Positions 2,207 to 64,000 of a stretch of 64,000 nt of DNA are shown piece by piece. The translations under genes were made by a program, and so were the position numbers. The stretch is from an uncultured Smithella sp. (lineage in GTDB: Bacteria > Desulfobacterota > Syntrophia > Syntrophales > Smithellaceae). Numbering within the stretch: position 1 is the first letter of the stretch; each line of letters opens with the position of its first letter. Location: contig CAYNWA010000001.1 in NCBI GenBank assembly GCA_964400795.1, forward strand, positions 69,313 through 133,312. Direction: 5' to 3'. Under the pieces are notes generated by a model. The model made no database searches and was not told where the DNA came from. It worked only from the letters and a program-made list of their open reading frames with translations.

Positions 2207-3913
2207 ATGCGTATGCAAGATCATATTTTAAAGGAAGCGGTAAAAGCTCTTTCGAACCAACCGGCGGAAGAAGCTAAAAAATTATTCACTTATATCCTTA
2301 CATCCAGCAAGAACCTTTCGTTGTATCCTGAAAATCACAGTATCTGCAGGGATTCCATTAATCAATTATACGAAAAGCTGGTAAATTATATCCGTAAAAA
2401 CGGGGATGTCACCATTGAAATAGAAAGAGACCGGGTACTTTGTCAGGGGGTAGAAGTCAGCACCGGATTATCGGAAGAAGGAACTTTTCCTCACATCCTA
2501 TTCCGGGACGGCATTGGGTGGCTGCAATTTACCGAAGGCATTGAACTGGAAGAACTCAGCCAGGTATTATCCATCATCCATCAATATGCGGCATCGGTCG
2601 CAGAACCTCAGGGAGATATCGTAACTGACTTCTGGGAGGCTCGTTTCGAACATGTGCAATATCAGGCCGACGATTTCTTTTCAGAAAAAGTACCGGACGA
2701 AGGTGAATATTTTCCCAAATCGGACAACACTCCTTCCGCGCCGGAAACGGAAACCACCCTCTCGTCACAGGACAAACCTTTTCTTTTCGGAGGTCTTGAG
2801 ATTGATTCGTCCGCTTTTGAGACCAGCCCCCGCGAGGAAGTCATCTTGCAGGAAATGGTTCTCAGAGAGGAAACGTCCTCAACCGGGGAACATCTGAATA
2901 TGCTTCTGGACATGCTTTTTCAGTATGAAGAAGAAACTGATTTCAATGTCCTTCTGGAAGTATTTGCTGAAGAATTCAAAGGTTCTTTTGACCGCCATGA
3001 TTTTGAAGCCATCCTGATTATTCTTGACGGGCTGCGTAAAGTTCTGGACAGTAAACGACTGGAAGCGCCCTGGGCAGGTGAACTTCTGGAAGCCTTTTAC
3101 AATGAAATCTGCTCTGATGCGGATTCGCTGAAACAACTGGAGAATATCTGGAACACCCTGGATGTTCGGCAGATGGAAACGCTCAGGAAAATATTTCATC
3201 ATTTGCATTCGCCGGTAGTCGGCGTTCTGGCCAATCTCCTGCTCGTTCAACAACCGGAGGCCCATGAACGGATTGTGGAGGATGCAATTTTCTCCCTGGT
3301 CGGTAAGGATCCTAAATGTCTGGAACAGCTGATCAATGATTCAGACGAAAAGGTCGTTGCGAAACTTTTTCCCGTCATATCCCGACTGGATCCGGATGAA
3401 TCTTTGAAACAATTGATGAAACTCACCAAGCATTTGTCAGTTTCAATTCGGCGTAAAGCCATCAGAGCGATTCTGGATATTGACAGCAATATCATATTAA
3501 AAATGTTTGATTTAATAGACGACAAAGATCCGTCCATTCGTCGGATGATTCTGACACAGATGGGCAAGTCCCGAAAAACAACATCGGAAAATTATCTGCT
3601 TGAATATCTTCAAAACAAAAAATTTGGCGACGGACAAAGCGAGCATATTATAGACTGCTTCAAAACGCTCGGGAAATGCGGTTCTTCAAAATCCGTCCCT
3701 TTTCTCAGTAAAACTCTGATGAATGTGGAATGGATGTCCGGATCGAAAACTGCCCTTTACCGTGAGGGCTCGGCCATCGCCCTGGCCGCACTGGATATAC
3801 CGGAAGCACAGCAAATTATTGATAAGGCGGGAAAAAGTTTACGCCCCGGTCTGCGCAAAATAGCGCGTGACGCCGAGAAGGGAATTCTCCATAACCGTAA
3901 AGGAGGCAAATGA
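2207..3913 (+). CDS. HEAT-repeat protein with an N-terminal module shared with the downstream HD-GYP protein
   Basis: 568-aa ORF. The C-terminal third has HEAT/PBS-lyase-like repeats (DEKVVAKLFPVISRL..., SVSIRRKAIRAILDI..., DKDPSIRRMILTQMGKS). The stop lies within a few nt of the next gene's start. Confidence 0.6.
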   Translation: MRMQDHILKEAVKALSNQPAEEAKKLFTYILTSSKNLSLYPENHSICRDSINQLYEKLVNYIRKNGDVTIEIERDRVLCQGVEVSTGLSEEGTFPHILFRDGIGWLQFTEGIELEELSQVLSIIHQYAASVAEPQGDIVTDFWEARFEHVQYQADDFFSEKVPDEGEYFPKSDNTPSAPETETTLSSQDKPFLFGGLEIDSSAFETSPREEVILQEMVLREETSSTGEHLNMLLDMLFQYEEETDFNVLLEVFAEEFKGSFDRHDFEAILIILDGLRKVLDSKRLEAPWAGELLEAFYNEICSDADSLKQLENIWNTLDVRQMETLRKIFHHLHSPVVGVLANLLLVQQPEAHERIVEDAIFSLVGKDPKCLEQLINDSDEKVVAKLFPVISRLDPDESLKQLMKLTKHLSVSIRRKAIRAILDIDSNIILKMFDLIDDKDPSIRRMILTQMGKSRKTTSENYLLEYLQNKKFGDGQSEHIIDCFKTLGKCGSSKSVPFLSKTLMNVEWMSGSKTALYREGSAIALAALDIPEAQQIIDKAGKSLRPGLRKIARDAEKGILHNRKGGK

Positions 3914-5358
3914 TCATGTCCGCTCGTCAACATATTTCGGAGGAACTGGGACATGATTTTCTCAATGCCTTTTATCATATGGTTACAACCGCCCGTAATT
4001 ATCAGGACAATAATCAACTGATCCGGAACAGTGTGCGTTCATTTAAATCTCTTCTTGATAAAATAATGACCGGTGGAGAAACCAGTCTTCTTCTCTGGAG
4101 AAGCCGTTTTTATCTTGGAGGAGAAAAACTTCCCTATCGCAGGGAAGCATCCAGTATTACGAACAGCATGATAGAGTATTTTGCAAGGCGAGGTATTGAA
4201 AGTTTCAATTTTCTGGAATCATCGCGTGATGCTTCACCGGAAGACATTCTTATTTTTACACGTCTGCTCAATGACGCCGTAAAATCTAAAGATTCACATT
4301 CGTGGCTGGCACAGAAACTGCTGGAGCACGATTTTTCCTGGGTGCAGGTATTCAAAAAACAGGAAGATGACGGGAAGGATTACAGTGAAAGCCAGGAAGA
4401 AAAGCGTTATCAGAAAGCCCGCAATACCTATTATCACGCCGTCGCAACGGTTAAAGACGTCGCCGCCAAAGCTGCAAAAGGCATGGTGGGAGTGCGCAGG
4501 AGCAGGCGCCTTGCGCAGAATATTGTTGAACTGATTCAGGAGGACGAGGCCTTGATGATCGGAATGACCACCATCAAGGAATTTGACGATTACACCTACG
4601 CCCATTCCGTCAATGTCGCCCTGCTGGCAACCTGTCTGGGAATGCACATCGGATTGTCGGATGTTTCACTGGAACACTTGTCCATTTGCGCCCTTTTCCA
4701 CGATTTGGGAAAGGTGGGTGTTTCCAAGGACATTCTGCTCAAAAAAGGACGGTTGACCGAAGGCGAATGGAATAAGATGAAAACCCATCCTTTGATCGGT
4801 GTCCGGAAAATTCTCATGCTGAATGCCTCATCGTCTTTGCGATCAAGGATCATCCTGGGTCCGTTTGAACACCATTTGAATCTGGACATGACCGGTTATC
4901 CGCGAACCCTGTTCGTGACACAGCTGAGCCTGATGGGAAAGATTCTGCACATAGCCGACGTTTACGAAGCATTGACGGCCGAAAGGAATTACCGGCCGAT
5001 GTCCTATACGCCGGATGAAGCGCTGAAAAAAATGTGGAGTGAGGCGGGAAAAAGTTTTGATACCATCCTGTTAAAACGTTTTATTAAAATGATGGGGGCC
5101 TATCCCATCGGCTCCGTTGTGGAACTTCATGACGGCAGTTTCGGTCTGGTGATGGATTATCCCGATCAATCAGAACGTCGGCTGCCCCTTATTTTACATC
5201 TGATCCCTGAAGGAAACGAGACATGGAAACGCGGAGACATGATTTATCTGGCCGATCAAACCGTCAGGAAGCCTTCGGAACAACTGACTATCGTCCGGAC
5301 GATTCCACCTTCCCAACTGCGCATCACTCCCGCAGATTTTTTCCTGCGTTTAAAATAA
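3910..5358 (+). CDS. HD-GYP domain protein (putative c-di-GMP phosphodiesterase)
   Basis: Motifs HSVNVALLA, ALFHDLGK, HHLNLDMTGYPR and IADVYEALTAERNYRP are characteristic of HD-GYP. AGGAGG lies at 3901-3906. The start is either ATG 3910 (ATGA overlap) or ATG 3916. Confidence 0.85.
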   Translation: MIMSARQHISEELGHDFLNAFYHMVTTARNYQDNNQLIRNSVRSFKSLLDKIMTGGETSLLLWRSRFYLGGEKLPYRREASSITNSMIEYFARRGIESFNFLESSRDASPEDILIFTRLLNDAVKSKDSHSWLAQKLLEHDFSWVQVFKKQEDDGKDYSESQEEKRYQKARNTYYHAVATVKDVAAKAAKGMVGVRRSRRLAQNIVELIQEDEALMIGMTTIKEFDDYTYAHSVNVALLATCLGMHIGLSDVSLEHLSICALFHDLGKVGVSKDILLKKGRLTEGEWNKMKTHPLIGVRKILMLNASSSLRSRIILGPFEHHLNLDMTGYPRTLFVTQLSLMGKILHIADVYEALTAERNYRPMSYTPDEALKKMWSEAGKSFDTILLKRFIKMMGAYPIGSVVELHDGSFGLVMDYPDQSERRLPLILHLIPEGNETWKRGDMIYLADQTVRKPSEQLTIVRTIPPSQLRITPADFFLRLK

Positions 5359-8950: not shown

Positions 8951-9370
8951 TCATTTAAATTTTTCTTCGTTAATTTGAGTCAGAATCCATAATGGCATGT
9001 CTTTCGCTTCCCTGCTAACGTTCTTTTGTTTCCATGAGATATAATTCTCAATTTTTTCTACTGCTGCTTTAGGCGTATTGAAGAATTCCACGCCGGCCTC
9101 ATAACATTTATCCTCAAAGACGATTTTGATCCACTTGACTTTGCCGAGAATGGTTATCTGTTTTTGCAGCGCCTTCAATGTGAGATCTATTTTGAGGAGA
9201 GTATCGACGGGGAAGAGAATATTCCCCCTAATTTTCGTACCAGACACAGAAATATCCTCGCTGTAAATATCGACTGTTTTCTCTTTAGGAAGATTCTTTC
9301 CTCCGGCAATGACCGATATGGTTATCTCGTTTAATTCCTCCAACCGCCGCCTTTCCCTTTTTTCTACCAT
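8951..9370 (-). CDS. PilZ domain protein (c-di-GMP receptor type)
   Basis: 139 aa. The N-terminal RERRR (RxxxR) and the downstream DISVSGTKI (D/NxSxxG) are the two PilZ signature motifs. Confidence 0.7.
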   Translation of the reverse strand: MVEKRERRRLEELNEITISVIAGGKNLPKEKTVDIYSEDISVSGTKIRGNILFPVDTLLKIDLTLKALQKQITILGKVKWIKIVFEDKCYEAGVEFFNTPKAAVEKIENYISWKQKNVSREAKDMPLWILTQINEEKFK

Positions 9371-9616
9371 GACAACTTTAATTCCTCCTTTTCAAATCCG
9401 GATTAGCCGTCTTTTACATTTCACGTTGGAACCTCTTTGTTTTTTTTAATTTAATTAATAAAATCCCTCGTGTCAAGAAAATATAAGCCATTGATATAAT
9501 TAGATAATGACAAACAAAAAGGTTATTAATTGCAATATTAATATATAATTTATATACTGAAAAAAATTAATTTTAAAATCGCATCATATTGTTTAACAAA
9601 TAAATAATTCTAAACA

Positions 9617-11362
9617 ATGGCCAACAAAAAAAGAAAACTGGGAGAGATATTAATAGAAAGCGGATTCGTTTCCGATGACCAGTTGATGAACGCGCTTGCC
9701 CTTCAAAAGAAAAGCGGAAAGATGATCGGCCAAACGCTTATTGAACTCGGTTATATTTCGGAGTCTCAACTCATGGAGGCTTTTCTAAAAAAATTCTCCA
9801 TCAATTATATCGACTGTTCCAATTTAACCGTTAAGGAAGAACACCTTAAACTGGTAAAAATGGACATGGCCGTGAAGAAAAAGATATTACCGACCAATGT
9901 GTCGGGGAATACGCTTTTCCTCGCCATGGTCAATCCTCTCGACTATTCAACGATTGACGAAGTCAAATTCCTCTCCGGACGCAATATTACACCCCTTCTT
10001 ACGACAGAATCATCCATGATGAAAGCCATTGAAAAAAACTACGGCTACTGCTCAATGGAAAAAATATGGAATCCATTGAACGAAATGCATCTGGATGGCG
10101 ATATGCAGTTCAACCTGGATAAAAATCTTGAGATCAGTCCGCCGGAAGAGAAAGAGGAGACCGACCTTAAGATCGACGAACTCTATAAGATAGGTGAAGA
10201 ACCCCCCATTGTAAAACTTGTCACGCTTATCCTCATTAATGCCGTGAAGTCAAGAGCGACAGACATCCATATAGAACCTCGTGAAAAATACGTTAATGTC
10301 CGCTACAGAATAGACGGTGATTTGACGACGGTTCTGAAAATATCAAAGAATCTTCAGGCGGCAGTCACCTCGAGGATCAAAATAATATCCACGATGAACA
10401 TCACCATACGCCGGCTGCCTCAGGATGGCAGAAGTACTGTAAAATATGAAGGCCGAATGATCGATCTTCGTGTTTCCACCATTCCCTCATCCCATGGAGA
10501 AACAATTGTCATACGAATACTCGACTCGGCCATGGGTCTCATTCCCTTAAGCAAGCTGGGAATGCCGGACAATATCATAAGAGATCTGCTGGAAATGCTG
10601 AATAAACCCCAGGGCATGCTTTTTGTTACCGGGCCGACAGGAAGCGGAAAGACCACCACACTCTATTCCCTGCTGACACAGCTTTCACTGGAATCGGAAA
10701 GCGTCGTAACCATTGAAGACCCGATCGAATATGAACTTGAGAACATCAAGCAGGTGCCGGTGAATGAAAAAATCGGGTTTACCTTTGCAGCGGCACTACG
10801 TTCCATACTCCGTCAGGACCCCGATGTTATCATGGTGGGAGAAGTCAGGGATTCCGACACCGCTCAAATTTCCACAAAAGCGGCTCTTACAGGCCACCTG
10901 GTTCTCAGTTCCGTCCACACCAACGACACCATTGCGACAATATCCCGGTTGAGGGATCTGGGCATAGAACCTTATCTTTTAAGTTCCGCCCTCAACGGCA
11001 TACTGGCGCAACGGCTCGTTAAGAAAATATGTGATAAGTGCCGTGTGGAATTTGAAATACCAGCATACCTTTATGATAATTATCCCTATCTCAAAAAGTT
11101 GAATATCGCCATCGCTTATAAAGGGAAAGGGTGTGAAGAATGCGGTTTTACGGGATATAGGGGACGAGTTGGTATTTTCGAATTCCTGCGCGTCGACAGC
11201 GATCTCAGAAAGGCTATCCCGAAATATAACTCCGACCAGGAACTCTGCAACCTTGCCCGGGAAAACGGAATGAAAACACTGATCGAAGATGCCTGCGAAA
11301 AAGTCGAAAACGGTACTACCACCCTAAAAGAAGTCCTTACAAAAATACACTATTATGAATAA
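9617..11362 (+). CDS. GspE/PilB-family secretion ATPase with an N-terminal MshEN (T2SSE_N) domain
   Basis: Walker A is GPTGSGKTT and Walker B/Asp box is DPDVIMVGEVRD; the His box is SSVHTND. A C-terminal tetracysteine is present (CDKC...CEEC). The N-terminus KLGEILIESGFVSDDQLMNALALQ fits the MshEN motif. Confidence 0.9.
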   Translation: MANKKRKLGEILIESGFVSDDQLMNALALQKKSGKMIGQTLIELGYISESQLMEAFLKKFSINYIDCSNLTVKEEHLKLVKMDMAVKKKILPTNVSGNTLFLAMVNPLDYSTIDEVKFLSGRNITPLLTTESSMMKAIEKNYGYCSMEKIWNPLNEMHLDGDMQFNLDKNLEISPPEEKEETDLKIDELYKIGEEPPIVKLVTLILINAVKSRATDIHIEPREKYVNVRYRIDGDLTTVLKISKNLQAAVTSRIKIISTMNITIRRLPQDGRSTVKYEGRMIDLRVSTIPSSHGETIVIRILDSAMGLIPLSKLGMPDNIIRDLLEMLNKPQGMLFVTGPTGSGKTTTLYSLLTQLSLESESVVTIEDPIEYELENIKQVPVNEKIGFTFAAALRSILRQDPDVIMVGEVRDSDTAQISTKAALTGHLVLSSVHTNDTIATISRLRDLGIEPYLLSSALNGILAQRLVKKICDKCRVEFEIPAYLYDNYPYLKKLNIAIAYKGKGCEECGFTGYRGRVGIFEFLRVDSDLRKAIPKYNSDQELCNLARENGMKTLIEDACEKVENGTTTLKEVLTKIHYYE

Positions 11363-11435: not shown

Positions 11436-12359
11436 TTATCTGCCCTCTTTTCTAAAGAGCTTAATTTGTTCCTGATAGCTTTTCATTTCTTCAGGTGTGA
11501 CTTTTTCCAAAATACATTCCTCAACCATATAACCTGTCACCTTGTCATCAAATTGCATTCTGGCAGTGGTGTGACCGGTTACCTCCTGAGCGATTTCGTC
11601 TTTTATATGTAAAAATGTTCTCCCCCCGGACCTTAATTGATGAATAACCATATTTTTTTTCGGCTCCGGCAAACCCATCCGGGCAGCGCGGCCTTCAAAG
11701 TCCCGTCGATCAATTTCCGTTTTAATTCCATCCACCAAAAACAATATCCCACCGAATGGCAGCATCGTTGCTGCACCGGCAACCGAGCCGGCCGTACCCA
11801 CGGCAATACTCGAATAGTCGGAAAATTTTCTGGAACGAAGTTCTGCAGCCGTCAATTTGCGAAATTTCAAAAGAATGCGATAGCCATAAAAATCCTTGAA
11901 GCTTTCCTGTAACTGATAATATTTCAGAGCGCGCACGATAAATTCCGAGACATGACCAAGATAAAGTTTTTCACTGGACGGTAATTTCACCGATTCCGGA
12001 TTAACATCACGCGATAGCTTCAGGCAGCTGAAAAGCGTATCCTGTTCTTCCGGTCCTGATGCGCAACCCGGTAGAAGAATCACATTAACTTCTCCTCTCG
12101 TGGCAAGCGCTTTGACCTCTTCGTCATAGGGATCGAATTTTCTATCAAGATAATTCTTGTAAAATGTGCCACACCCGGAAAAACTTAAAACTAGCAAAAC
12201 GTTGCTTAGCAGCATGATGATCCACCGGGCTGAATATTTTACCTGCTGAACATTGCCGGCTCCAAACCGGCTATCAGTATGGTTCTCTGTGTCACGAATA
12301 CCTTCATTTTTTTCTTTCATTTTGTTTATTGGTTTGGAAAATAATTTGTCAATAAGCAT
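11436..12359 (-). CDS. hypothetical protein, probable lipoprotein
   Basis: ORF with an internal lipobox-like segment MLLSNVLLVLSFSGC (ATG at 12215). The true start is uncertain (12359, 12320 or 12215). I recognise no domain. Confidence 0.45.
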   Translation of the reverse strand: MLIDKLFSKPINKMKEKNEGIRDTENHTDSRFGAGNVQQVKYSARWIIMLLSNVLLVLSFSGCGTFYKNYLDRKFDPYDEEVKALATRGEVNVILLPGCASGPEEQDTLFSCLKLSRDVNPESVKLPSSEKLYLGHVSEFIVRALKYYQLQESFKDFYGYRILLKFRKLTAAELRSRKFSDYSSIAVGTAGSVAGAATMLPFGGILFLVDGIKTEIDRRDFEGRAARMGLPEPKKNMVIHQLRSGGRTFLHIKDEIAQEVTGHTTARMQFDDKVTGYMVEECILEKVTPEEMKSYQEQIKLFRKEGR

Positions 12360-29691: not shown

Positions 29692-29779
29692 AACAGAAGC
29701 TGCACGGCAAGAAAAGATATTATAGCAGAATATATTTAAATTTTTCTAATTAAACCGCGTATTGGGGTTTTTCATTATA

Positions 29780-32700
29780 ATGGAAAAATTTGCAAATTAT
29801 ATTTTACGAGAAAAAATTCATGAAACCCAAAACTCCATTATTTATCGTGGACACAAAGAAAACGAAGCCCAGCAGTTTATCATCAAGCTGCTGAGAACCA
29901 GATATCCAACCCCTTCGGAGATCGCGCGATTCAGGCAGGAATATGATCTGATTAAAGGTCTTGACCTGGAAGGTGTCATCAAGACATTTGATATCATCAT
30001 CCACGGTGACGGATTTGCCCTGATCCTGGAAGATTTTGACGGCATTTCCATCAAAAGCCTCCTGGATAAACAAAAAAGATTTGATCTGAAATCATTGCTG
30101 AGAATATCGGTAAAGATCGCCGAAGCGTTGGGAAGTATTCACGAAAAAGAAATCGTTCACAAAGATATTAAGCCGCACAATATTCTGATCAATCCGACAA
30201 CCGAAATGGTCAAGATCACAGACTTTGGTATCTCTACTCTTCTAACACATGAAAACGATGAGGTATATAATCCCGATTTCATAACCGGCACGTTAGCGTA
30301 TATGTCGCCGGAACAGACCGGCAGGATGAACCGTACCGTCGATTATCGGACAGATCTTTATTCTTTGGGAATCACAATGTATGAAATGCTCACCGGTAAC
30401 CTTCCCTTCAAATCCCAGGACCACGACCCGATAGAGCTCATCCATTCCCATATCGCGGTCATGCCGGAACCTCCTGCCATCTTTGATCCCGGTATTCCAG
30501 AGGTGATTTCGGATATGATCATGAGGCTGCTGGCCAAAGCCCCTGAAGAGAGATATCAGAATGGTTTCGGTTTAATGGCGGATATCAACGAATGCATCAA
30601 ACAATTTGATGAAAAGCAAAATATTGAAATATTCGAGTTGGGAAGGTTCGACATATCCAACAGGTTTATCACACCGCCAAAGCTTTTCGGACGGGACAAA
30701 GAGATAGAGGAATTAATATCCGGTTTCGATGCCGTTGCAACCCAGAAAACGGGAGCTACTGTCATGGTTGTCTCAGGTGCTCCGGGCATCGGAAAATCAG
30801 CGATGGTGAATGAGATTCACAAGTCCATCGTCGCCAGGAAGGGATATTACATATCGGGAAAGTATGAGCAGTTCCGAAGGGACAAGCCGTACAGCGCCAT
30901 TATCCAGGCATTCCAGGTGCTTGCGAAACAGATATTATCGGAAAGCGAGGAACGAATCAGTGTTTGGAGAGATAATCTTTTAAAGGCGCTGGGCACCAAC
31001 GGTAAGGTTATCACCGATGTCATTCCGGAAGTCGAGCTGATCATCGGCAATCAACCGGATTTGCCGACGCTGGGTCCGGAGGAATCCAGGAACAGGTTTA
31101 ACTTTGTATTTGAGAAATTCATGGAAGTGTTTCCTCAAAAGGAACATCCATTAGTCGTCTTTCTTGATGATCTGCAATGGTCCGACCTGGCCAGCCTTCA
31201 ATTCCTGAAAAACATTCTGACCGGATCGGGAATGAATTATTTCTTTTTAATACTTTCCTACAGAGATAACGAAGTGGGTGAATTTCACCAGGTCATGGAT
31301 TTCCTGGGACATGTTGAAAAGAGCAAAGTAAAGGTCAACCGAATAACACTCGGGACTTTAACGGTCAGGAATATAACGGATCTTATCAAATACTTTCTAA
31401 GATGTTCCGAGGAGGAAGGAACGAAACTTGCCGAGCTCCTGGTGAAAAAAACGGGAGGCAATCCTTTTTTTGTAAATCATTGTCTTCAAACGCTGTACAA
31501 TGAAATGTTGATTGTTCATGAAGGTGTCCACGGCTGGCGATGGGATGTGGAAAAGATAAGCCGGATGCAGGTTACAGACAACCTCGTGGATCTAATGGCA
31601 GGAAAAATCGGAAAGCTGTCAAAAGGCACACAGGAGGTTTTAAAAATATGCGCCTGCATCGGAAACAGATTCGATCTGGAAACCCTAGCTGCCGTGCGGG
31701 GCACATCCGTAGATCTGGCCCTTGTAGATCTCACCGAAGCCATCAACGAGGGAATGGTCAGCCATGTCGGGGAAATGTACGTTTTTCATCATGACCGGAT
31801 TCAGGAGGCAGCCTATTCTCTGGTAACGGACGCCGAAAAATCAAATCTTCATTATAAAATAGGAAAGCTGACGCTTGATACAACCGATGACGCTGGGCTT
31901 CAGAAAAAATTATTCTACATTGTGGACCAGTTGAATTTGGGCGTCGATATGATACAAGGCGCGGAGGAGCGGGAGAAGCTCGCAACGTTTAACCTTGATG
32001 CGGGCAAGAAGGCGAAAGCCTCGGCAGCCTATGGTCCCGCGTTCGGTTACCTGCAAAAAGGCATCGGCCTTCTGGAAGATCATCCCTGGCAAAACCAGTA
32101 TGAACTGACCCTGTCCTTATATTCCGAATCCACGGAAGCCGCATACCTGATGGGCGATTTGGACAGAATGAATGAACTTGCCGAGATCACAATCATTAAC
32201 GCGCAAACAACCCTGGATAAGATTAGTATCTATTTGTCCAGGATCAACGCCTGCATGGCCCGGGAGGACTACCAGGGCGCGATCAATGTAGCCCTGCCGG
32301 TGCTTAATCTTTTAGGTTTAAGGCTGCCGCAAAATCCGACACAGCTTCATGTCGGCATGGAATTAATGAAGTTAAAAATCAGGCTCCTGGGAATGAAACC
32401 GGAAGACATCTTGAACCTGCCGAGAATGACCGATCCCGAACGACTTGCGGCGGAAAAAATTATCGTCAGCATCGGACATGCCGCTTTTTACATGAAACCG
32501 AATATGTTGGCCATGGTTATCCTGAGAGGAATAGGAGGATTCCGCTACGGTCTCGCACCCGATCATGCATTCGCAGTTGCCAGTTATGGGATTTTACTCG
32601 CGGCCGGGCTCTGCGACTTCAAAGGATCCATAGCATTCGGTCAATTAGGTTTAAAGCTGATCGACAAGATGGGAGCGCGGGATCAGGAATGCAGGACTAT

Positions 32701-34699
32701 TTTTGTGTATAATGCCATTGTGCGCCATTGGTCTTTCCCGATTCGGGATACCATCGACTCCCTAAGGGACGGTTACAGGATCGGGATGGAAACAGGCGAC
32801 ATCGGCTTTGCTTCATTTAATCTTTTTTTAAGCGATGTCCATGCCCTGTTTTCCTGCATGGAGCTTTCCGAACTCGACAGCATCATGTCCAGAAACAATC
32901 AAACCATTATGGGACTGAATCAGAACTATACCTTGACGCTGCATTCACTGACCTGGCAGTCGGTTTTCAATTTAAGGGGACAGTGCGATGACCCCTTGAA
33001 GGTATCAGGCAAGGCGATCGACGGGGAAACTCTGTTACCGGCATGGGAAAGCGCGAATAACCGCGCCGCTCTCGCCGTGTTCTGGTTTATAAAATTAATC
33101 ATGTGTACTGTCTATAATGATTTTGCCCTTGCGGTAAAAGCTTCCAATCAATTTAAAAAGTACAAAGATGCGATGCAAGGAATCGTTATTAATCTTTATG
33201 CCGTGATGTGCGATTCGATGGCCAGACTTTTCATGTATCAATCCGCAACCCCTGATGAAAAAATAAAATACAGAGTGCTGGTCACCATGAATCAGATTAA
33301 ATTGAAGAAATGGGCAGCCAGTTCCCCATCGAATGGTCTGCACATGTATTATCTGGTGGAAGCTTTACGTACCTGGCTTATAAGTGAAAACATGAAAAAA
33401 GTGGAAACACTTTTTGAACAAGCTATCCATCTATGTAAAAAACACGACGATATCATTATCGAAGGAATTGTCAGCGAGCACGCAATAAAATTTTTTCAAG
33501 CCGCAGGTAATGAAAAAAAGGCAAATGACTTTAAGGCTGCGGCTTATTCCTGCTATTCGCGATGGGGTGCGACCGGTCTTCTGAATAAACTAAACAAGAT
33601 ATATCCCGATATCGTTACGTCCGCCGGAAAAGTGTCTCAGGATACCGGAATGGACACAACAATAACAACAGGTAGTCATACTTTAGCCGCTACTCTTGAT
33701 CTTTCCTCCGCCATGAAAGTTTCCGAGGCCATTACCAGCGAAATCATGCTGGAGCGTCTGCTGCAGAAGATTATGCACATGTCTCTCACCAACGCCGGCG
33801 CTCAGCGCGGATATCTGATTCTGGATACAGACGGTGAATTGACCATTGAAGTCAGTGAAGATGCCGATAAAAAAGAATCCCTGGTGATGCAATCCATGGT
33901 TTTAAAAGACTGCGACGACATCTGCCATGCCATTGTCAACTATGTCCACCATAGCGGGAAGGACGTTGTCCTTGGCAATGCCCTTGATGAAGGTCCCTTT
34001 ACAGACGATCCCTATATCATGCGTACAAAGTGCAAATCGATCCTGTGTTCTCCCTTTATGCACAAGGGTAATCTCGCCGGTATCCTCTATATGGAAAACA
34101 ATCTGAGCACAGATGCCTTTACTCCGGAGCGGCTGAATATGCTCCGCATGTTTTCAGCTCAAGCCGCTATCTCCATTGAAAACGCCAGACTCTTCGAATT
34201 GGCCACGACCGATGGCATGACTAAACTCTATGTGCACCGTTACTTCCAACTTCTTTTGGACAAGGAAATAAAGCGTTCCGGTCGTCACAACAGAAAATTT
34301 TCGCTCATCATGATGGATATCGATAATTTTAAATCTTTCAACGACACCTACGGCCATCAACTGGGCGACGAAGTCCTGAAGGACGTTGCCCTTGTCGTCA
34401 AAAAAAATACACGCGCTGAAGATGTTTCGGCACGCTACGGAGGCGAAGAGTTCGTCGTGATCCTCCCTGAAACTGATGCCCAACAAGCCATGATCGCCGC
34501 AGAGAAGATACGCACGAGTGTCGCCGCGCTTGAAATCCCCTATGAAGATCAAAAATTGAAAGTAACGATCAGCTTGGGAGTATCTACATATCCGGAACAC
34601 GCTATAGAAAAGGACGTCCTTATTCATGCAGCCGACACAGCCCTTTATACGTCGAAACGCAGCGGCAAGAACTGTGTCAGCCTTTATGAAAAACGGTGA
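29780..34699 (+). CDS. multidomain signalling protein: Ser/Thr kinase - AAA/STAND NTPase - TPR-like - GAF - GGDEF
   Basis: Kinase motifs are FIIKLL, HKDIKPHNILI, ITDFGIS and YMSPEQ. The P-loop is VSGAPGIGKS and Walker B is VVFLDDLQW. The GAF-like region lies around EIMLERLLQKIMHMS...GILYMEN. The cyclase has RYGGEEF with RAED (RxxD I-site) 5 residues upstream. Confidence 0.85.
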   Translation: MEKFANYILREKIHETQNSIIYRGHKENEAQQFIIKLLRTRYPTPSEIARFRQEYDLIKGLDLEGVIKTFDIIIHGDGFALILEDFDGISIKSLLDKQKRFDLKSLLRISVKIAEALGSIHEKEIVHKDIKPHNILINPTTEMVKITDFGISTLLTHENDEVYNPDFITGTLAYMSPEQTGRMNRTVDYRTDLYSLGITMYEMLTGNLPFKSQDHDPIELIHSHIAVMPEPPAIFDPGIPEVISDMIMRLLAKAPEERYQNGFGLMADINECIKQFDEKQNIEIFELGRFDISNRFITPPKLFGRDKEIEELISGFDAVATQKTGATVMVVSGAPGIGKSAMVNEIHKSIVARKGYYISGKYEQFRRDKPYSAIIQAFQVLAKQILSESEERISVWRDNLLKALGTNGKVITDVIPEVELIIGNQPDLPTLGPEESRNRFNFVFEKFMEVFPQKEHPLVVFLDDLQWSDLASLQFLKNILTGSGMNYFFLILSYRDNEVGEFHQVMDFLGHVEKSKVKVNRITLGTLTVRNITDLIKYFLRCSEEEGTKLAELLVKKTGGNPFFVNHCLQTLYNEMLIVHEGVHGWRWDVEKISRMQVTDNLVDLMAGKIGKLSKGTQEVLKICACIGNRFDLETLAAVRGTSVDLALVDLTEAINEGMVSHVGEMYVFHHDRIQEAAYSLVTDAEKSNLHYKIGKLTLDTTDDAGLQKKLFYIVDQLNLGVDMIQGAEEREKLATFNLDAGKKAKASAAYGPAFGYLQKGIGLLEDHPWQNQYELTLSLYSESTEAAYLMGDLDRMNELAEITIINAQTTLDKISIYLSRINACMAREDYQGAINVALPVLNLLGLRLPQNPTQLHVGMELMKLKIRLLGMKPEDILNLPRMTDPERLAAEKIIVSIGHAAFYMKPNMLAMVILRGIGGFRYGLAPDHAFAVASYGILLAAGLCDFKGSIAFGQLGLKLIDKMGARDQECRTIFVYNAIVRHWSFPIRDTIDSLRDGYRIGMETGDIGFASFNLFLSDVHALFSCMELSELDSIMSRNNQTIMGLNQNYTLTLHSLTWQSVFNLRGQCDDPLKVSGKAIDGETLLPAWESANNRAALAVFWFIKLIMCTVYNDFALAVKASNQFKKYKDAMQGIVINLYAVMCDSMARLFMYQSATPDEKIKYRVLVTMNQIKLKKWAASSPSNGLHMYYLVEALRTWLISENMKKVETLFEQAIHLCKKHDDIIIEGIVSEHAIKFFQAAGNEKKANDFKAAAYSCYSRWGATGLLNKLNKIYPDIVTSAGKVSQDTGMDTTITTGSHTLAATLDLSSAMKVSEAITSEIMLERLLQKIMHMSLTNAGAQRGYLILDTDGELTIEVSEDADKKESLVMQSMVLKDCDDICHAIVNYVHHSGKDVVLGNALDEGPFTDDPYIMRTKCKSILCSPFMHKGNLAGILYMENNLSTDAFTPERLNMLRMFSAQAAISIENARLFELATTDGMTKLYVHRYFQLLLDKEIKRSGRHNRKFSLIMMDIDNFKSFNDTYGHQLGDEVLKDVALVVKKNTRAEDVSARYGGEEFVVILPETDAQQAMIAAEKIRTSVAALEIPYEDQKLKVTISLGVSTYPEHAIEKDVLIHAADTALYTSKRSGKNCVSLYEKR

Positions 34700-53737: not shown

Positions 53738-56700
53738 TCATTGAACAGCCCCCTTCCCCTTAACGAGATGGGCAATCTTCTCTTTCCAGTCGTCGAACAT
53801 ATCGTAGGCAGCGGGAACGACGGCCAAGGTAAGGAAAAGCGAAGTCAGAAGTCCCCCGATCAGCGTGATTCCCATCGGGGCGCGCAGATCAGCGCCTTCC
53901 CCGATGCCGAGCGCTACGGGCAGCATGCCGAATACCATGGCGAAGGTGGTCATCAGGATGGGGCGCAGCCGGATGGGCCCTGCCTGCAGAATGGCCTCAC
54001 GCCGGGACAGGCCCCGTTCACGCAGTGTGTTGGTATAGTCGACAAGGAGGATAGCGTTCTTTTTGACCAGGCCCATGAGGAGGACGAGACCGATGAAACT
54101 CACGATGCTCAGGGATTTTCCGAAGATCAGGAGCGCGACGAAAGCCCCGATGAACGAAAGCGGCATGGACAAAAGAATTGTAACGGGATCGATGAGGCTT
54201 TCAAACTGCGACGCCAGAACCATATACGCAAGCAGGATCCCCAGGAGAAGAGCAAACATGAGGTACCGGAAAGATTTTCCCATTTCTTCAGCCTCTCCCG
54301 TGTAGCCGGCGGTGTATCCGGGCGGCAGGATTCTTGCGGATATGGCATCGAGCTCCTCCATGGCCTCGCCCAACGGCTTGCCTTCCAGGTTGGCAAATAT
54401 CCAGATGGTACGCTGCCGGTCCTTCCGCGAAATACTGCTTGGGCCACCCCCCTCTTCAATGGTAATGATATTGTTTAGCTCTACGAGCTTTCCGTCCACA
54501 GCCCGGACATATAGCCGACTGATGTCGGAGGGGCTCATCCTGTCTTTCGGGTTCAGTCTCATCCTGACATCATATCGTCTTCCCTTTACCGTATCCTTGA
54601 ATTTCGTCACATCAACCTCGCCGGACATGAGGAGATTTACCGCTTCCGTAATGGAGGCTACGCTGACTCCCATATTCGTCGCCTTTTCCCGGTCAATGTA
54701 AACGCTTAACTCCGGTTTGCCTGCCTCGATGGATGTGTCGATATCCACGACACCTTTTACCTTGGAAAATTCAGTGACAATGGCCTTGACATATGTTCTG
54801 AGTTCATCGATGGAACCGCCCCGGATGGAATACTGAATGGGAACATTCCGGATTCCGCCTCCGAGAATGGCAACCTCTTCGATCGTGCTTTTCAGGCCCG
54901 GGATTGCGGCAAACGCCTTCCGAAGCTCCGCCATGATTTCCTGCTGAGATTTGTCTCTCTCGGATCTCGGTTTCAGGCTGGTCTGAATAAAGGCCTTGTT
55001 AATCTGTGACATTCTCCCCTGTCCCGCCCCCTGACCAAAGAAAACCGCCGTGACTTCGGGCATAGACCGGACAACCCGCTCTGCCCGACTAAACAGCGCC
55101 CCGGCGTGTTCCACGGAATAATCAATGGGCGCTTCCATCCGGATCATGAACTGGCTCTGGTCTTCGCTTGGTTTGAATTCTTTGCCGATGAACCGGGTAA
55201 TCCACAGGCTGAAGATAAAAAGGATGAGCGCGCCGATGAGGACACTCCGGCGATGGTCGAGACTGAACGTCAGAACGGGTCGATAGGCCTTTTCGATTTT
55301 TTTGTATCCGCGCTCCAGTTTTTCCCCGATCCGCGCCATGGACCCACCCCGGGTTGCGCCTTGAGGGGCGTCCTTTTTTCGGGGACGGAGCAAAATTGAC
55401 GAAAGCATGGGTGTCAAGGTAACCGACACGAGGAGCGAAACGAGGATGGAAAAGACGACGGTCAGGGAGAACTGCATGAAGAACCTCCCGATGATTCCCT
55501 TCATAAAGGCAACGGGCAGAAAAATGACCACTATGGCGAGGGTTGTCGCCATGACCGCGGGCCCGATCTCGCCGGTGGCGAAGGATGCGGCCTCTTTTGG
55601 TGACATTCCGTCTTCGATGTGGCGGTAGATATTCTCGATGACGATGATGGCATCGTCGATGAGAATACCGACAGACAGGGTCAGGGCCAGCATCGTCAGA
55701 TTGTTGAAGGTGAAATCGAACATCCTCATGACCGCGAAGGTGGAGACGATCGAAACAGGCAGGGCAACCGCGCTGATCAGGGTGGTGCGGAAGTTTCTCA
55801 GAAAGACGAAAACTGCGATGATCGCCAGGATCGATCCCAGGATCAGATGCTCTTTCACCTGATCCATTGACTGCTTGATAAATACCGACTGGTCGAAGGC
55901 GATCCGGATGTCTATGCCCGGCGGCAGGCTTTTCCTGATGCGCTCGACTTCTTCCTTAACCCGGTCGATGACCTGGACGGTATTGGTGCCGGTCTGCTTC
56001 TGGATGCCGATACCGACGGAAGAAACGCCGTTAAAACGTGCATACGAACGTCTTTCCTGCGTTCCGTCTTCGGCCCTGCCGATATCTCTCAACCGCACGG
56101 TAGCATCGGCATGAGAGATGATAATGAGATCATTAAAAGAGGAGATATCCTGCAGCGCCCCCTTGACCTTGATGGAGTATTCCTTCGTTAAGCTCTCGAT
56201 GCGTCCACCCGGCATTTCGATATTTTCCCGCTTCAAGGCTGCAGCAACATCGCCCGGCGCGACCCCGTAAGCCGCAAGTTTGTCTCTGTCGAGCCAGATC
56301 CGTATCTGCCGCTTCTGCATACCTGCCAGGCTCAGAGCGCCGACACCCTGGATTTTCTGCAACTGTTCCTTGAGGCTTTCATCCACATAGGTTGACAGAT
56401 CGCGTTGAGACTTTTCCCCTGTCAGGGCCAGCCACAAAACGGGTGTGGCATCGATGTTGACCTTCTGGATGACAGGTTCGATGATATCGTCCGGAAGCTG
56501 GGAACGGACGGCGGAAATCTGCTCCCGTACATCCTGGATGGCAAGATCGATGTCGCGTTCCAGTTCAAATTCCACGATCACGCTGGATACCCCGTCAATG
56601 CTCAGCGAGTTGATCGTTTTCACCCCGTTGATTGAACTGATCGCTTCCTCGATTTTATCCGTTACATCGACATCCATGATTTCGGGGCTTGCCCCGGCCA

Positions 56701-56851
56701 AACCGGTCGTGATGTTGACGAGGGGAAATTCCACTTTGGGAAAGAGATCAACGCCGATCGCCGGATAGCTTACCAGGCCCAGAACGACCAAGGCGAGAAT
56801 GAACATGGTGGCAAGAACGGGGCGTTTGATCGAAGTATCAGAAATCCACAT
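53738..56851 (-). CDS. RND efflux transporter permease (AcrB/HAE-type, 12 TM)
   Basis: MWISDTSIKRPVLATM opens the protein, and it has the two large periplasmic loops. Conserved TM4/TM10 regions are present (LSVGILIDDAIIVIENI, GLVKKNAILLVDY). The track start 56893 lies upstream of the canonical ATG at 56851. Confidence 0.9.
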   Translation of the reverse strand: MWISDTSIKRPVLATMFILALVVLGLVSYPAIGVDLFPKVEFPLVNITTGLAGASPEIMDVDVTDKIEEAISSINGVKTINSLSIDGVSSVIVEFELERDIDLAIQDVREQISAVRSQLPDDIIEPVIQKVNIDATPVLWLALTGEKSQRDLSTYVDESLKEQLQKIQGVGALSLAGMQKRQIRIWLDRDKLAAYGVAPGDVAAALKRENIEMPGGRIESLTKEYSIKVKGALQDISSFNDLIIISHADATVRLRDIGRAEDGTQERRSYARFNGVSSVGIGIQKQTGTNTVQVIDRVKEEVERIRKSLPPGIDIRIAFDQSVFIKQSMDQVKEHLILGSILAIIAVFVFLRNFRTTLISAVALPVSIVSTFAVMRMFDFTFNNLTMLALTLSVGILIDDAIIVIENIYRHIEDGMSPKEAASFATGEIGPAVMATTLAIVVIFLPVAFMKGIIGRFFMQFSLTVVFSILVSLLVSVTLTPMLSSILLRPRKKDAPQGATRGGSMARIGEKLERGYKKIEKAYRPVLTFSLDHRRSVLIGALILFIFSLWITRFIGKEFKPSEDQSQFMIRMEAPIDYSVEHAGALFSRAERVVRSMPEVTAVFFGQGAGQGRMSQINKAFIQTSLKPRSERDKSQQEIMAELRKAFAAIPGLKSTIEEVAILGGGIRNVPIQYSIRGGSIDELRTYVKAIVTEFSKVKGVVDIDTSIEAGKPELSVYIDREKATNMGVSVASITEAVNLLMSGEVDVTKFKDTVKGRRYDVRMRLNPKDRMSPSDISRLYVRAVDGKLVELNNIITIEEGGGPSSISRKDRQRTIWIFANLEGKPLGEAMEELDAISARILPPGYTAGYTGEAEEMGKSFRYLMFALLLGILLAYMVLASQFESLIDPVTILLSMPLSFIGAFVALLIFGKSLSIVSFIGLVLLMGLVKKNAILLVDYTNTLRERGLSRREAILQAGPIRLRPILMTTFAMVFGMLPVALGIGEGADLRAPMGITLIGGLLTSLFLTLAVVPAAYDMFDDWKEKIAHLVKGKGAVQ

Positions 56852-56861
56852 GATGACGTAA

Positions 56862-58058
56862 TTATCCTTTCTTGGCGTCTGTATTTGAGGCAATCAATCC
56901 CTGCTGGATATGCTCCATCAGCGTCTCCAGCCGTTCACGACTTGCCAGAACGTTCGGCATGGAGTAGATCAGCGTCATATCGTCATCGCCGTTGCACATG
57001 CCGATAAAGATGGGGGAGTATTCCTGACCGGGAGGAATGCCCCAGGTATATTTGCCTTCAAAACCACCGCCACTGTAAACCGGAATCCGTCCCATATTGG
57101 TAAGAACCCCGGAGTTGGGATAGCGTCCTGTGCGGTTCTTGGTGGCGATGTTGCTAACGATAAATTTTTTTAGCATCCAGAGGGGTAAAAAGCGGATCGG
57201 ACGGTCACCCCAATAGATCATGCCGTCATGCCGCGCTTCCAGCTGACGCTTGATGTCCTTACTCACATCAGCCGGCGTGGTGGACGGGCTGATTTCCGCA
57301 TAGATCAGGTTGGTCAGGTTGCCGGTCGAACGCAATCCCTCAACCCTGGCGCGCATATCCACTGGGATGGCCACGCGGAACTTGCCCTCTTGATATCGCC
57401 ATGCTTCCCTGGCAAGCAGAATGGCCACCTGTCCGATGACGTTGCTGTAACGTCCCGGATAGCGTCGTCGGCGCCAGATCACACCGGGCTGGTCGCCTTG
57501 CGGCATACCGGTCGGAGCGATGAATTCCGGAACGGGCCCCTTGCGGCCTTTTTTCTGAAAGGTCGCCGCAATCTCAAATTCGGTGATACGCGAATCCGAT
57601 CCGAGGGGATCTTCGCCGCGCAGACAGCGGAAAATGTCTTCCACCCAGGTTACGGTGCCCCGGCCATCCATGGTGGCGTGCATGGTACGGAAGACAACGC
57701 GTAGCGGGTTGCCGTGGATAAGGACAACTTCAGAGGTTGGTCCCTCAAAAGGATTCAGGGTTTCCCGCAGTCGCGCCGGTGCTCCTTCCGGACCCAGACC
57801 GTCCCAGGAGGAACCATCCACCTCGATCACCGGCGGGATTTTACCGGTATCGACGAGACGGGCAAGGGCCGTGATGCCCTTGACGACAACACGGCTCCCC
57901 GGATTGGCTTCGGATGCGATCTTGACAGCTTCCCGCCATTTAGGAAGGTCAAAGTATCCGGTCCCTTCCCAGAAGAGCTGGTTGAGAAACGGCGGACAGC
58001 ATTCGTTGTAAACCACATACGCTCGTTCGGTGGAACTCAATTGCCGTGAATAGACCAT
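56862..58058 (-). CDS. freestanding condensation-domain-type acyltransferase (MHxxxDG variant), paralog 2
   Basis: FRTMHATMDGRG lies at about residue 130 of a ~398-aa protein, which aligns end to end with the upstream paralog. The ATG at 58058 has a GGAGGA RBS; the track ORF extends to 58139. Confidence 0.7.
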   Translation of the reverse strand: MVYSRQLSSTERAYVVYNECCPPFLNQLFWEGTGYFDLPKWREAVKIASEANPGSRVVVKGITALARLVDTGKIPPVIEVDGSSWDGLGPEGAPARLRETLNPFEGPTSEVVLIHGNPLRVVFRTMHATMDGRGTVTWVEDIFRCLRGEDPLGSDSRITEFEIAATFQKKGRKGPVPEFIAPTGMPQGDQPGVIWRRRRYPGRYSNVIGQVAILLAREAWRYQEGKFRVAIPVDMRARVEGLRSTGNLTNLIYAEISPSTTPADVSKDIKRQLEARHDGMIYWGDRPIRFLPLWMLKKFIVSNIATKNRTGRYPNSGVLTNMGRIPVYSGGGFEGKYTWGIPPGQEYSPIFIGMCNGDDDMTLIYSMPNVLASRERLETLMEHIQQGLIASNTDAKKG

Positions 58059-58077
58059 CGACTGTATCCTCCTCTTA

Positions 58078-59265
58078 TCATTCTGCTCGTTCAAGCCCTC
58101 TGGCCATTCTCTGCAGAATATCTTCAATTCTGCCTTCACTGGCCAGAACTTTGGGCATGGATAGGGTTAGTTCTGAACCGCCTTCATAACCCGCCATCAC
58201 CAGAAAAAACGGATAGTATTCGGTCGCCGGCGGAATAATCCAGAATGCCCGTGCAGTAAACCCCGCACCACTGAATCTATTCAGATCGACCCGGCCCAGG
58301 TTGGAAAGGATACCGGAAAGGCTGTAGATGCCCCGCTCGTGACGGTTAAGAATAATTTTTTTTATCTTGTGCTGCATTAACCACAGCGGCATGTATTCCA
58401 GACGCTCGTCTCCCCTGGACAGTCTGCCTTCATCGCCCTGACTGATCTGCCGGGTAATGTCCCGGACGATTTCATCCGGAGTTGTTTTCTTGTTCACCTC
58501 TATATATAAGGCGAAAGAAAGATTTGCCGTACTGAACAGCCCCGGTTTGCGGGGCCTCATGTCTACGGGAATGCCGAAACGGACAACCCCCTCACCATAC
58601 CGCCAGGCCTCCTCAGCCGCCAAGCGGGCGCATCGTGCCAGCAGATTGGGTATCTTGCGCTTGATGGAGCGGCGTCTCCACGTCACGCCGGATTCATTCC
58701 CTTTCGGACGACCCGTGGGAGCGATATGCTCTGTGGGAAAAGGAGTGCGAAGTTGATTCTGAAAACTTCTGCACATTTCCACATCCGTCATGTTCGAATT
58801 GGAACCGATAACCGTTTCCCCGCGTAGGACCCGGAAGACTTCCTCGGCCCAGAATAAGGTGCCACGTCCATCGCACACGCCGTGATGAGCGCGAAACATC
58901 ACCCGCGGGATGGGACCCTGGATTAAAACAATCTCGCAGGTTGGACCTTCACGATAGGAAAGAGGTTCTTGAAACCACGGCGCACTCTCCGGGCCCATTC
59001 CATTCCAGTTGCTTCCGTCCACTTCACGCACGGGAGGGGAAATTCCCGAATCGACCCAGCGGCTCCAGCCCAGATGGCCTTTGAGAATCAGACGTGTACC
59101 CGGATTGGCTTCGGAGGCAACTTCGGCTGCCTTGCGCCATCGTTCAGGGTCGAGTGTTCCCTCGCCATCAAAGATAAACTGATTGACCGTGGGTGGGCAG
59201 ATCAGATTGAATGCCACAAATGCCCGTTCATTGAATGTCATCCTTCGCGTATAACGTTTCTTCAT
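58078..59265 (-). CDS. freestanding condensation-domain-type acyltransferase (HHxxxDG), paralog 1
   Basis: FRAHHGVCDGRG is the HHxxxDG motif of the NRPS condensation / PapA / WS-DGAT superfamily, at the expected distance from the N-terminus. The start shares an ATGA overlap with the upstream gene. Confidence 0.7.
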   Translation of the reverse strand: MKKRYTRRMTFNERAFVAFNLICPPTVNQFIFDGEGTLDPERWRKAAEVASEANPGTRLILKGHLGWSRWVDSGISPPVREVDGSNWNGMGPESAPWFQEPLSYREGPTCEIVLIQGPIPRVMFRAHHGVCDGRGTLFWAEEVFRVLRGETVIGSNSNMTDVEMCRSFQNQLRTPFPTEHIAPTGRPKGNESGVTWRRRSIKRKIPNLLARCARLAAEEAWRYGEGVVRFGIPVDMRPRKPGLFSTANLSFALYIEVNKKTTPDEIVRDITRQISQGDEGRLSRGDERLEYMPLWLMQHKIKKIILNRHERGIYSLSGILSNLGRVDLNRFSGAGFTARAFWIIPPATEYYPFFLVMAGYEGGSELTLSMPKVLASEGRIEDILQRMARGLERAE

Positions 59266-60206: not shown

Positions 60207-60211
60207 TTTTT

Positions 60212-61240: not shown

Positions 61241-61341
61241 CTAATCCCATTGAGAAACTCTTATTCGGGGAACTTTTGCAATAGAACAAGGGGAACAGCT
61301 CTGCCGTTCCCCTTGTTCTCCGTCAGGATATCATAGATATA

Positions 61342-62712: not shown

Positions 62713-62799
62713 TTTATCCTCCTATTTAATCGTTGTTTTCAACGATAATTCGCGTTGCTCAAATCGTCCAACATAGCGTATTCTTCGGGTGGAAAATTT

Positions 62800-63753: not shown

Positions 63754-64000
63754 GTAAAATCCCCCTCTTAATAATGAAGTCCTAAAATACTATTGTCTTC
63801 TTGTGCTGAATTCGAGGATAGGCGATGTTTCTTGATAATGATGGAATTTATGCCCCGATATAAAAGCGCTTTCCCACGAAATTTGCACAACTTCATTTTT
63901 GGTCATTTCGGTGAAACACGAAATCCAATATCTGTTTGGATTACAAATAAATTGTTTGTTTATTGGCATAAGACTTAAACACATTTTATTCCGCCAATCT

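Follow-up and report, generated by a model that had tools for sequence, protein, structure and literature searches.

What does a pilus-type motor gene do when it stands apart from any pilus locus and faces, across a short intergenic spacer, the gene for a putative second-messenger receptor? This is the question raised by positions 8951 to 11362 of a 64,000-nucleotide stretch of DNA from an uncultured Smithella sp. (the whole of which we call the window), where a PilZ protein of 139 amino acids (aa) and a PilB/GspE-type ATPase of 581 aa are encoded divergently. An initial annotation of this DNA had proposed that the ATPase is a stand-alone motor gated by c-di-GMP (cyclic dimeric guanosine monophosphate) through an N-terminal MshEN domain, and that PilZ is its co-regulated adaptor. 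Our analysis suggests that the ATPase is a vertically inherited, single-gene motor of the PilB family and a c-di-GMP receptor, that its pilus lies elsewhere in the genome, and that PilZ is an optional accessory, an explanation to which we give a probability of about 0.55. It is built on the domain identities, the conservation of motifs, the intact catalytic residues, the stand-alone context and the pattern in which the pair is retained and lost; from these we infer ligand binding, the pilus target and any contact between PilZ and the ATPase.

The ATPase gene and its setting

The features of the ATPase gene are as follows.

9617 to 11362, plus strand: PilB/GspE-family ATPase gene, 581 aa (open reading frame; Pfam T2SSE, 426 bits)
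9635 to 9706, plus strand: MshEN motif I, residues K7-Q30, KLGEILIESGFVSDDQLMNALALQ (fits the extended consensus)
9722 to 9793, plus strand: MshEN motif II, residues M36-K59, MIGQTLIELGYISESQLMEAFLKK (clade-fixed variant)
9797 to 10045, plus strand: MshEN C-terminal subdomain, residues 61-143 (Pfam PF05157, 57.9 bits, cut-off 23.1)
10199 to 11338, plus strand: T2SSE ATPase core, residues 195-574 (Pfam and motif scan)

Both open reading frames (ORFs) of the divergent pair lie exactly where the initial annotation had placed them, and the larger one has the complete architecture of a PilB protein, with N1, N2 and CTD, Walker A and B motifs, an Asp box, a His box and a zinc site of four cysteines. 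The catalytic motifs are all intact (Walker A at residues 339-347, Asp box at 363-371, Walker B at 399-412 and His box at 425-436), and in the motif scan two CxxC motifs, at 472 and 506, make up the zinc site. PilB and GspE are its best NCBIfam matches, and its closest solved relatives in the PDB are Thermus PilF, Geobacter PilB and Myxococcus PilB (E 4e-21 for the last). The first 150 residues match MshE (5HTL, E 2e-16) and the N1 domains of PilB and PilF, and the N1 domains with which the MshEN C-terminal subdomain lines up are those of PilF, Myxococcus PilB and Geobacter PilB. A ratio of nonsynonymous to synonymous substitution rates (dN/dS) of 0.04-0.05 indicates that the protein is under purifying selection.

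Two 24-residue motifs with a 5-residue spacer are the definition of MshEN given for Vibrio cholerae MshE, and the 24-residue motif quoted in the initial annotation agrees with it (Wang et al. 2016). The motif that the annotation recognised at the N-terminus, its KKSGK spacer and the “more degenerate” second copy are indeed present: residues 7-30 and 36-59, with the 5-residue KKSGK between them, form a 53-residue unit of the defined layout, and the NCBIfam model NF053729 (MshE-related c-di-GMP motif) matches residues 7-56 with 67.6 bits, the cut-off being 38. Motif I, KLGEILIESGFVSDDQLMNALALQ, fits the extended consensus (R/K/L)LGxx(L/V/I)(L/V/I)xxG(L/V/I)(L/V/I)xxxxLxxxLxxQ, its F17 (motif position 11) being permitted by the V. 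cholerae form of the motif and by the variant quoted in the annotation, and it is the one occurrence of the extended pattern in a six-frame translation of the window. Motif II, MIGQTLIELGYISESQLMEAFLKK, departs from this consensus, with M as its residue 1, I as 2, Y as 11, F as 21 and K as 24, the glycines at 3 and 10 and the leucine at 17 being retained. The same form (M/I at 1, F at 21, K at 24) is common to every full-length ortholog among 37 Smithellaceae clusters and is therefore a fixed, clade-specific variant and not a sign of decay, and this uniformity, together with the dN/dS of the ATPase, shows constraint on motif II; in out-group ATPases motif II is mostly the canonical R/K-L-G...L-x-x-Q.

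How such a variant might bear on ligand binding can be judged from the characterised proteins. In MshE the hydrophobic residues count most, and changes of Arg9 or Gln32 cost less than 5-fold (Wang et al. 2016). The tightest binder known, PilF GSPII-B (dissociation constant, KD, 6 nM), begins its motif I with Lys and its motif II with Leu; reversion of these to Arg lowers affinity 25-fold and 4-fold, respectively, and with a single Gln-to-Glu change in its motif II it still binds with a KD of 460 nM. The GSPII-A domain of Thermus PilF is non-binding; in its motif II the Ser that stands first and the Arg at position 24 needed reversion to regain binding. GSPII-A raised the concern that Met at motif II position 1 would abolish binding, which we revised because GSPII-B has the higher affinity with Lys and Leu in the corresponding places. 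By analogy the GSPII-B data suggest that the Smithellaceae motif II is compatible with binding, and its K59 would retain a hydrogen-bond donor and a positive charge near the phosphate. Judged by its sequence, the ATPase N-terminus is a likely binder of c-di-GMP; the clade-fixed variant (Met/Ile at 1, Phe at 21, Lys at 24) is a test, provided by nature, of the MshEN consensus as recently extended.

The initial annotation had also reported that pilin, platform, secretin and PilM-Q genes are absent from the vicinity, and we likewise find no pilin, PilC/GspF, secretin or PilMNOPQ family in a scan of 49 larger ORFs of the 64-kb window (with Pfam for 46 of them and only NCBIfam for the final three, at 60212-63753), nor a prepilin N-terminal signature in any frame of the window, even with a loose pattern. 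The window shows only 9.6 kb upstream of the ATPase, and related contigs widen the view. ATPase orthologs form a tight set of 82-100% identity, the next homologs reaching at most 53%, and a scan of a genome collection gave four ortholog loci, one of them in a named Smithella metagenome-assembled genome (MAG). In the window clade the order is PCMT, PilZ, the divergent ATPase, a lipoprotein-like gene of 295-307 aa, (ADH) and a TPP enzyme. In group B (ATPase 85% identical), found on more than 100 contigs with a named Smithella MAG among their sources, the order is an efflux/LPG-synthase block, about 950 bp without genes, the ATPase, PNPOx and UbiA; in group C (ATPase 83% identical) the ATPase stands between MutL and a GDSL lipase, and the two nearest out-group homologs (52-53%) are flanked by unrelated metabolic genes. 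In the 10-kb flanks of the ATPase in these five contexts (three in Smithellaceae, groups A to C, and those of the two out-group homologs that are nearest) there are no pilus or secretion genes. One candidate, a T2SSG gene 10 kb from the homolog in L007 (L007:21157-21552, minus strand), has a lipoprotein signal peptide and no prepilin N-terminus and was not counted. The ATPase is thus stand-alone in all five contexts examined, as the annotation had held for the window, and with the curated motif model passed, the description of a stand-alone ATPase with a c-di-GMP-type N-terminus is borne out.

The change of setting came about by movement of a single gene. The efflux/LPG-synthase block that lies directly upstream of the ATPase in group B lies about 43 kb away from it in the window genome, and over 9 kb this block (window 54702-63780, L002:3-9051) has 81% nucleotide identity, the ATPase itself 80%; that the two values are alike shows vertical inheritance with relocation of a single gene by about 43 kb.

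Three observations concern the neighbours and relatives of the ATPase. The lipoprotein-like gene is, in the window, a 307-aa ORF (11436-12359, minus strand) convergent to the ATPase; it carries the lipoprotein-type signal LSFSGC, matches nothing in Pfam or NCBIfam, is 80-89% conserved in every window-clade locus and is absent from groups B and C. The stretch of about 950 bp upstream of the group B ATPase (L002:9052-10000; also in L003, L004, L010, L011 and L016) holds no ORF longer than 71 aa, matches no Rfam family and does not resemble the window spacer. Finally, many of the nearest out-group ATPases (P0050-P0118, about 690-745 aa, from Nitrospirota and others) add a response-regulator receiver domain to MshEN and T2SSE, which suggests that phosphorylation and c-di-GMP inputs meet on one motor in these receiver-bearing proteins.

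The PilZ gene and the divergent arrangement

The PilZ gene and the spacer that separates it from the ATPase gene comprise the following features.

8951 to 9370, minus strand: canonical single-domain PilZ gene, 139 aa (ORF and Pfam)
9344 to 9358, minus strand: RxxxR codons (R5-R9) of PilZ; R5 and R9 each kept in 116 of 121 family members
9239 to 9256, minus strand: DxSxxG codons (D39-G44) of PilZ; D39, S41 and G44 each kept in 120 of 121
9371 to 9616, no strand: divergent intergenic spacer, 246 bp, 23.2% GC (window 45.0%)
9471 to 9485, no strand: 15-nt block TGTCAAGAAAATATA, invariant in an alignment of four diverged spacers (window, L024, L013 and L026)
9530 to 9558, plus strand: ATPase-side sigma-70-like promoter site TTGCAA-17-TATACT (promoter scan, consensus match only)

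The PilZ protein scores 31.2 bits with the Pfam profile PF07238, above the gathering threshold of 22.5, and it combines this score with the RxxxR and D/NxSxxG motifs of canonical PilZ domains, whose conservation we counted in an alignment of 121 family members. The RxxxR...DxSxxG pattern occurs a single time in the six-frame translation of the window. We prefer the 139-aa start at the ATG at 9370 because M1 is conserved in the family alignment; the sequence AAGGAGG stands upstream of this ATG. The automatic gene caller had chosen a 130-aa start, which would remove the RxxxR motif and which the family alignment and the upstream AAGGAGG overrule. PilZ is thus a real, canonical receptor type, and from its motifs it is predicted to bind c-di-GMP. 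Relative to its relatives PilZ has a dN/dS of 0.07-0.08, and its protein sequence has changed about 3.4 times as fast as that of the ATPase. When PilZ was compared with the sequences in the PDB at E values up to 10, no chain matched, the entries for Xanthomonas citri PilZ included, and an AlphaFold2 model of PilZ from 46 family sequences was too poor for use (predicted local distance difference test score 41.7).

The very AT-rich, 246-bp spacer noted in the initial annotation is there at the length given, and an Rfam search at gathering scores over the window and two related loci found no family, and no riboswitch, in it. On the PilZ side the promoter scan finds a minus-strand promoter-like site, TTGACA-17-TAAATT, at 9476-9448, whose -35 element (TTGACA) is overlapped by the invariant block TGTCAAGAAAATATA. 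The ATPase-side site is kept within the window clade (with TATAAT in L013) and not in L026.

The divergent pair is kept in two separate clades of the ATPase tree, each with 100% bootstrap support: the window clade and a clade represented by P0029 and P0009. Between the two, the ATPase is 82-85% and PilZ 76-78% identical (divergence of the pairs compared about 17-18% and 22%, respectively), and synonymous divergence is saturated. Since the gene beyond PilZ is PCMT in the window clade and RsfS in the other, the pair has survived a break in synteny. Our first impression, that the pair occurs only where the ATPase is at least 93% identical, was revised when a metagenome scan and the tree placed it in the P0029 clade, at 82-83%, as well; the two deep nodes of this tree that received a value have bootstraps of 4-13%. 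Wherever context could be seen, no PilZ ortholog of at least 75% identity was found away from the ATPase.

A pair of genes 3.6 kb upstream of PilZ and the ATPase may belong with them.

2207 to 3913, plus strand: HEAT-repeat gene, 568 aa (Pfam HEAT_2; no NCBIfam model matched)
3910 to 5358, plus strand: HD-GYP phosphodiesterase gene, 482 aa (Pfam HD/HD_5; HD and GYP motifs both present)

The two genes overlap by 4 nt, and it is possible that this HEAT-HD-GYP operon is a member of the same c-di-GMP node as PilZ and the ATPase. A relative in the window clade (L013:11957-12073) holds only a 39-aa remnant of the HD-GYP gene, 79% identical, which indicates that the operon was lost there while the PilZ/ATPase pair was kept. 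Farther along the window a 1645-aa protein (29762-34699, plus strand) joins a Ser/Thr kinase, AAA_16 and GAF to a GGEEF diguanylate cyclase that looks active and has an RxxD I-site. All four gene types, HD-GYP (3910-5358), GGEEF (29762-34699), PilZ and motor ATPase, are found in the one window.

The most telling support for a link between PilZ and the ATPase comes from a distant locus. L097:185-10583 encodes, in this order, a GGDEF protein, a HEAT protein, an HD-GYP protein, a 213-aa MshEN-only protein, PilZ, a Big_1 protein, a 140-aa ORF and a PilT/PilU-family ATPase, the last scoring above its cut-off, and a related locus, 91% identical to L097, is found at L103:1-3831. The 213-aa protein consists solely of MshE-type motifs, in four tandem 24-residue copies (NF053729, 73.8 bits), and its gene is divergent from PilZ across 277 bp. 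The HEAT and HD-GYP proteins of L097 can be aligned over their full lengths with their window counterparts (E 9e-63 and 1e-108; 26.6% and 36% identity, respectively). This homology together with the content of the locus indicates that a set of HEAT, HD-GYP, PilZ, an MshEN domain and a pilus-type motor ATPase recurs in two distant lineages, and the L097/L103 locus is by its sequence a compact c-di-GMP/pilus-motor gene set.

Weighing the explanations

According to the explanation that we prefer, c-di-GMP would bind across the two 24-residue motifs in the four-helix N-terminal subdomain of the ATPase, by analogy with MshE, Myxococcus PilB and PilF, and the bound ligand would stabilise or reposition the N1 domain and so promote pilus extension. 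The machine powered would most likely be a type IV pilus whose genes lie in another part of the genome, in keeping with reports of type IV pilin genes from Smithella and of scattered pil genes from Syntrophus. PilZ, with its own promoter-like site, would be an optional accessory in the same c-di-GMP node and not an obligatory partner, possibly an adaptor that docks on the N1 domain of the ATPase; the HEAT-HD-GYP enzyme would lower local c-di-GMP and, with PilZ, may help to tune the motor. A number of observations weigh against one or another part of this explanation. With the PilB equivalog model TIGR02538 the ATPase scores 557.5, below the cut-off of 675.65, in an alignment that spans residues 7-575, and with the GspE model TIGR02533 it scores 549.3, below 630.25, in one that starts only at residue 80. 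It classifies as a PilB-family, MshE-like ATPase, yet, with scores under both cut-offs, as an equivalog of neither PilB nor GspE, and no gsp genes that might mark it as a GspE lie near it in the window. The association with PilC, PilM and pilins expected of a PilB is seen neither in the window nor in the 10-kb flanks of the five contexts. Motif II ends in K59 and not in Gln, a position at which the non-binding PilF GSPII-A has an Arg that was reverted to Gln to restore binding. The known PilB-binding PilZ proteins (of the PA2960/X. citri type) are of a non-c-di-GMP-binding type, unlike the window PilZ with its RxxxR and DxSxxG motifs, which does not belong with them. The window spacer has two separate, back-to-back promoter-like sites with unconserved sequence between them and no evident shared operator. 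In groups B and C the ATPase is present, but the 10 kb around it hold neither PilZ nor a remnant of it, and one strain, represented by two independent assemblies, has a PilZ allele with K46stop and G76V, the latter at a family-invariant glycine; the ATPase of this strain has a dN/dS of 0.05, and the PilZ genes of its close relatives are intact. Lastly, in a survey of 80 PilZ-family loci fetched from metagenomes, an ATPase ortholog adjoins PilZ in only 3 (L024, L025 and L026, all with PilZ of at least 78% identity), an HD-GYP homolog being near PilZ in 17 instead, and two more distant family members lie directly downstream of PAS/REC-HD-GYP genes; the majority of the family adjoin no ATPase at all.

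Much of this would fit a PilZ that is a mere neighbour, one of many small PilZ receptors that adjoins the ATPase by shared descent and acts in an unrelated pathway. Its absence beside the ATPase in groups B and C, the intact ATPase of the strain with the K46stop and G76V allele, the figures of 3 and 17 among the 80 loci, the position of close PilZ paralogs directly downstream of PAS/REC-HD-GYP genes, the separate promoter-like sites with unconserved sequence between them and the roughly 3.4-fold faster evolution of PilZ all speak for such a reading, which we regard as a serious possibility that falls short of an even chance. Set against it are the persistence of the pair in two fully supported clades at saturated synonymous divergence despite the swap of PCMT for RsfS, the distant lineage that independently has PilZ divergent from an MshEN gene beside HEAT-HD-GYP homologs and a PilT-family ATPase, and the finding that PilZ orthologs of at least 75% identity were seen solely next to the ATPase where context was available. 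The same evidence divides what the initial annotation had proposed: the association of the pair stands for two clades and across a synteny break, with the L097/L103 locus as its analog, whereas conservation does not extend to groups B and C, the nonsense allele speaks against an obligatory partnership, and the spacer shows no evident shared operator that would point to co-regulation. One could go further than our preferred explanation and suppose a node of two receptors, in which a binding-competent PilZ docks on the MshEN/N1 region of the ATPase, the two receptors differ in affinity, HD-GYP sets the local c-di-GMP level, and the parts are modular, MshEN being fused to a PilB-like ATPase in the window and standing alone with a PilT-family ATPase in L097/L103. 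We know of no description of a canonical PilZ acting on a c-di-GMP-binding PilB. Such a node, with HD-GYP as a member, is a reasonable and testable hypothesis, possible and on balance doubtful.

Two further alternatives concern the ATPase itself. Its MshEN domain might have lost c-di-GMP binding together with the Arg and Gln contacts of motif II, leaving PilZ to sense the ligand in trans, the reverse of the Xanthomonas arrangement. The replacement of R, L and Q by M36, F56 and K59 in every full-length Smithellaceae ortholog, where the out-group is mostly canonical, the first and last motif II deviations that had to be reverted in PilF GSPII-A, and the known complexes of PilZ with the PilB N1 domain are in keeping with this idea. 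However, the domain of highest affinity, GSPII-B, likewise starts motif I with Lys and motif II with a hydrophobic residue, the loss of one Gln still leaves a KD of 460 nM, the Lys here would keep the donor and the charge near the phosphate, NF053729 scores well above its cut-off, and groups B and C share the motif II variant with no PilZ adjacent to do the sensing; we consider the idea quite improbable. The ATPase might alternatively serve no type IV pilus at all, and instead a machine like the type II secretion system, an undescribed machine, or no dedicated envelope machine. Its near-equal scores below both equivalog cut-offs, the five contexts with no platform protein or pilin adjacent and the grouping of its closest relatives in a clade of genes that likewise stand alone, with an added REC domain in some, would be expected on such a reading. 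Yet the ATPase aligns from end to end with PilB, PilF and MshE, through the c-di-GMP subdomain, N1, N2 and a CTD with its zinc site, whereas it aligns with GspE only from residue 80, and type IV pilin genes have been reported in Smithella. Moreover, all characterised members of this architecture that we know of drive a pilus or pseudopilus, and we hold the reading to be unlikely.

Both PilZ and the ATPase are members of well-known families, and a stand-alone PilB-family gene with MshEN will not surprise specialists. If the pairing is functional, it would give a compact genetic case of two c-di-GMP receptor types converging on one pilus motor, in a setting, the syntrophic Smithellaceae, where type IV pili have been discussed as possible conduits for interspecies electron transfer, and it would offer a handle on how these uncultured bacteria switch pilus production. 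If it is not, what we have described is an ordinary stand-alone PilB-family gene beside one of many PilZ genes.

Comparison with known systems

The ATPase of the window has the same architecture as V. cholerae MshE and the PilB proteins of Myxococcus xanthus, Clostridium perfringens (PilB2) and Chloracidobacterium thermophilum, that is, the 53-residue motif pair with its 5-residue spacer, MshEN_C, N2 and the ATPase core, which has a zinc site. It differs from them in standing away from pilus genes, in its motif II variant and in scoring below the PilB cut-off, and its ligand binding is a prediction. In PilF GSPII-B of Thermus thermophilus, as in the window ATPase, the first residue of motif I is Lys and that of motif II is hydrophobic (Leu there, Met/Ile in the Smithellaceae proteins), a pattern that in PilF gives very high affinity without arginines; however, PilF has three tandem GSPII domains and in GSPII-B both motifs end in Gln, whereas the window ATPase has one domain and its motif II ends in Lys.

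For PilZ as a possible adaptor the template is the PilZ-PilB(-FimX) system of X. citri and Pseudomonas aeruginosa, in which a small single-domain PilZ acts on the N1 domain of the extension ATPase, although the PilB of that system is without the MshEN motif that the window ATPase has. A second likeness, one of gene content, is to Xanthomonas campestris, where RpfG (an HD-GYP protein), a GGDEF protein, a c-di-GMP-binding-competent PilZ (XC_2249) and PilT/PilU form a complex: in the window an HD-GYP gene lies 3.6 kb from PilZ and the ATPase, and L097 has GGDEF, HD-GYP, PilZ and a PilT/PilU ATPase in one locus. In Xanthomonas, however, it is retraction ATPases that are targeted and the genes lie scattered, whereas in the window the neighbour of PilZ is an extension-type ATPase with a predicted c-di-GMP domain of its own, and the HD-GYP protein has a HEAT-repeat partner.

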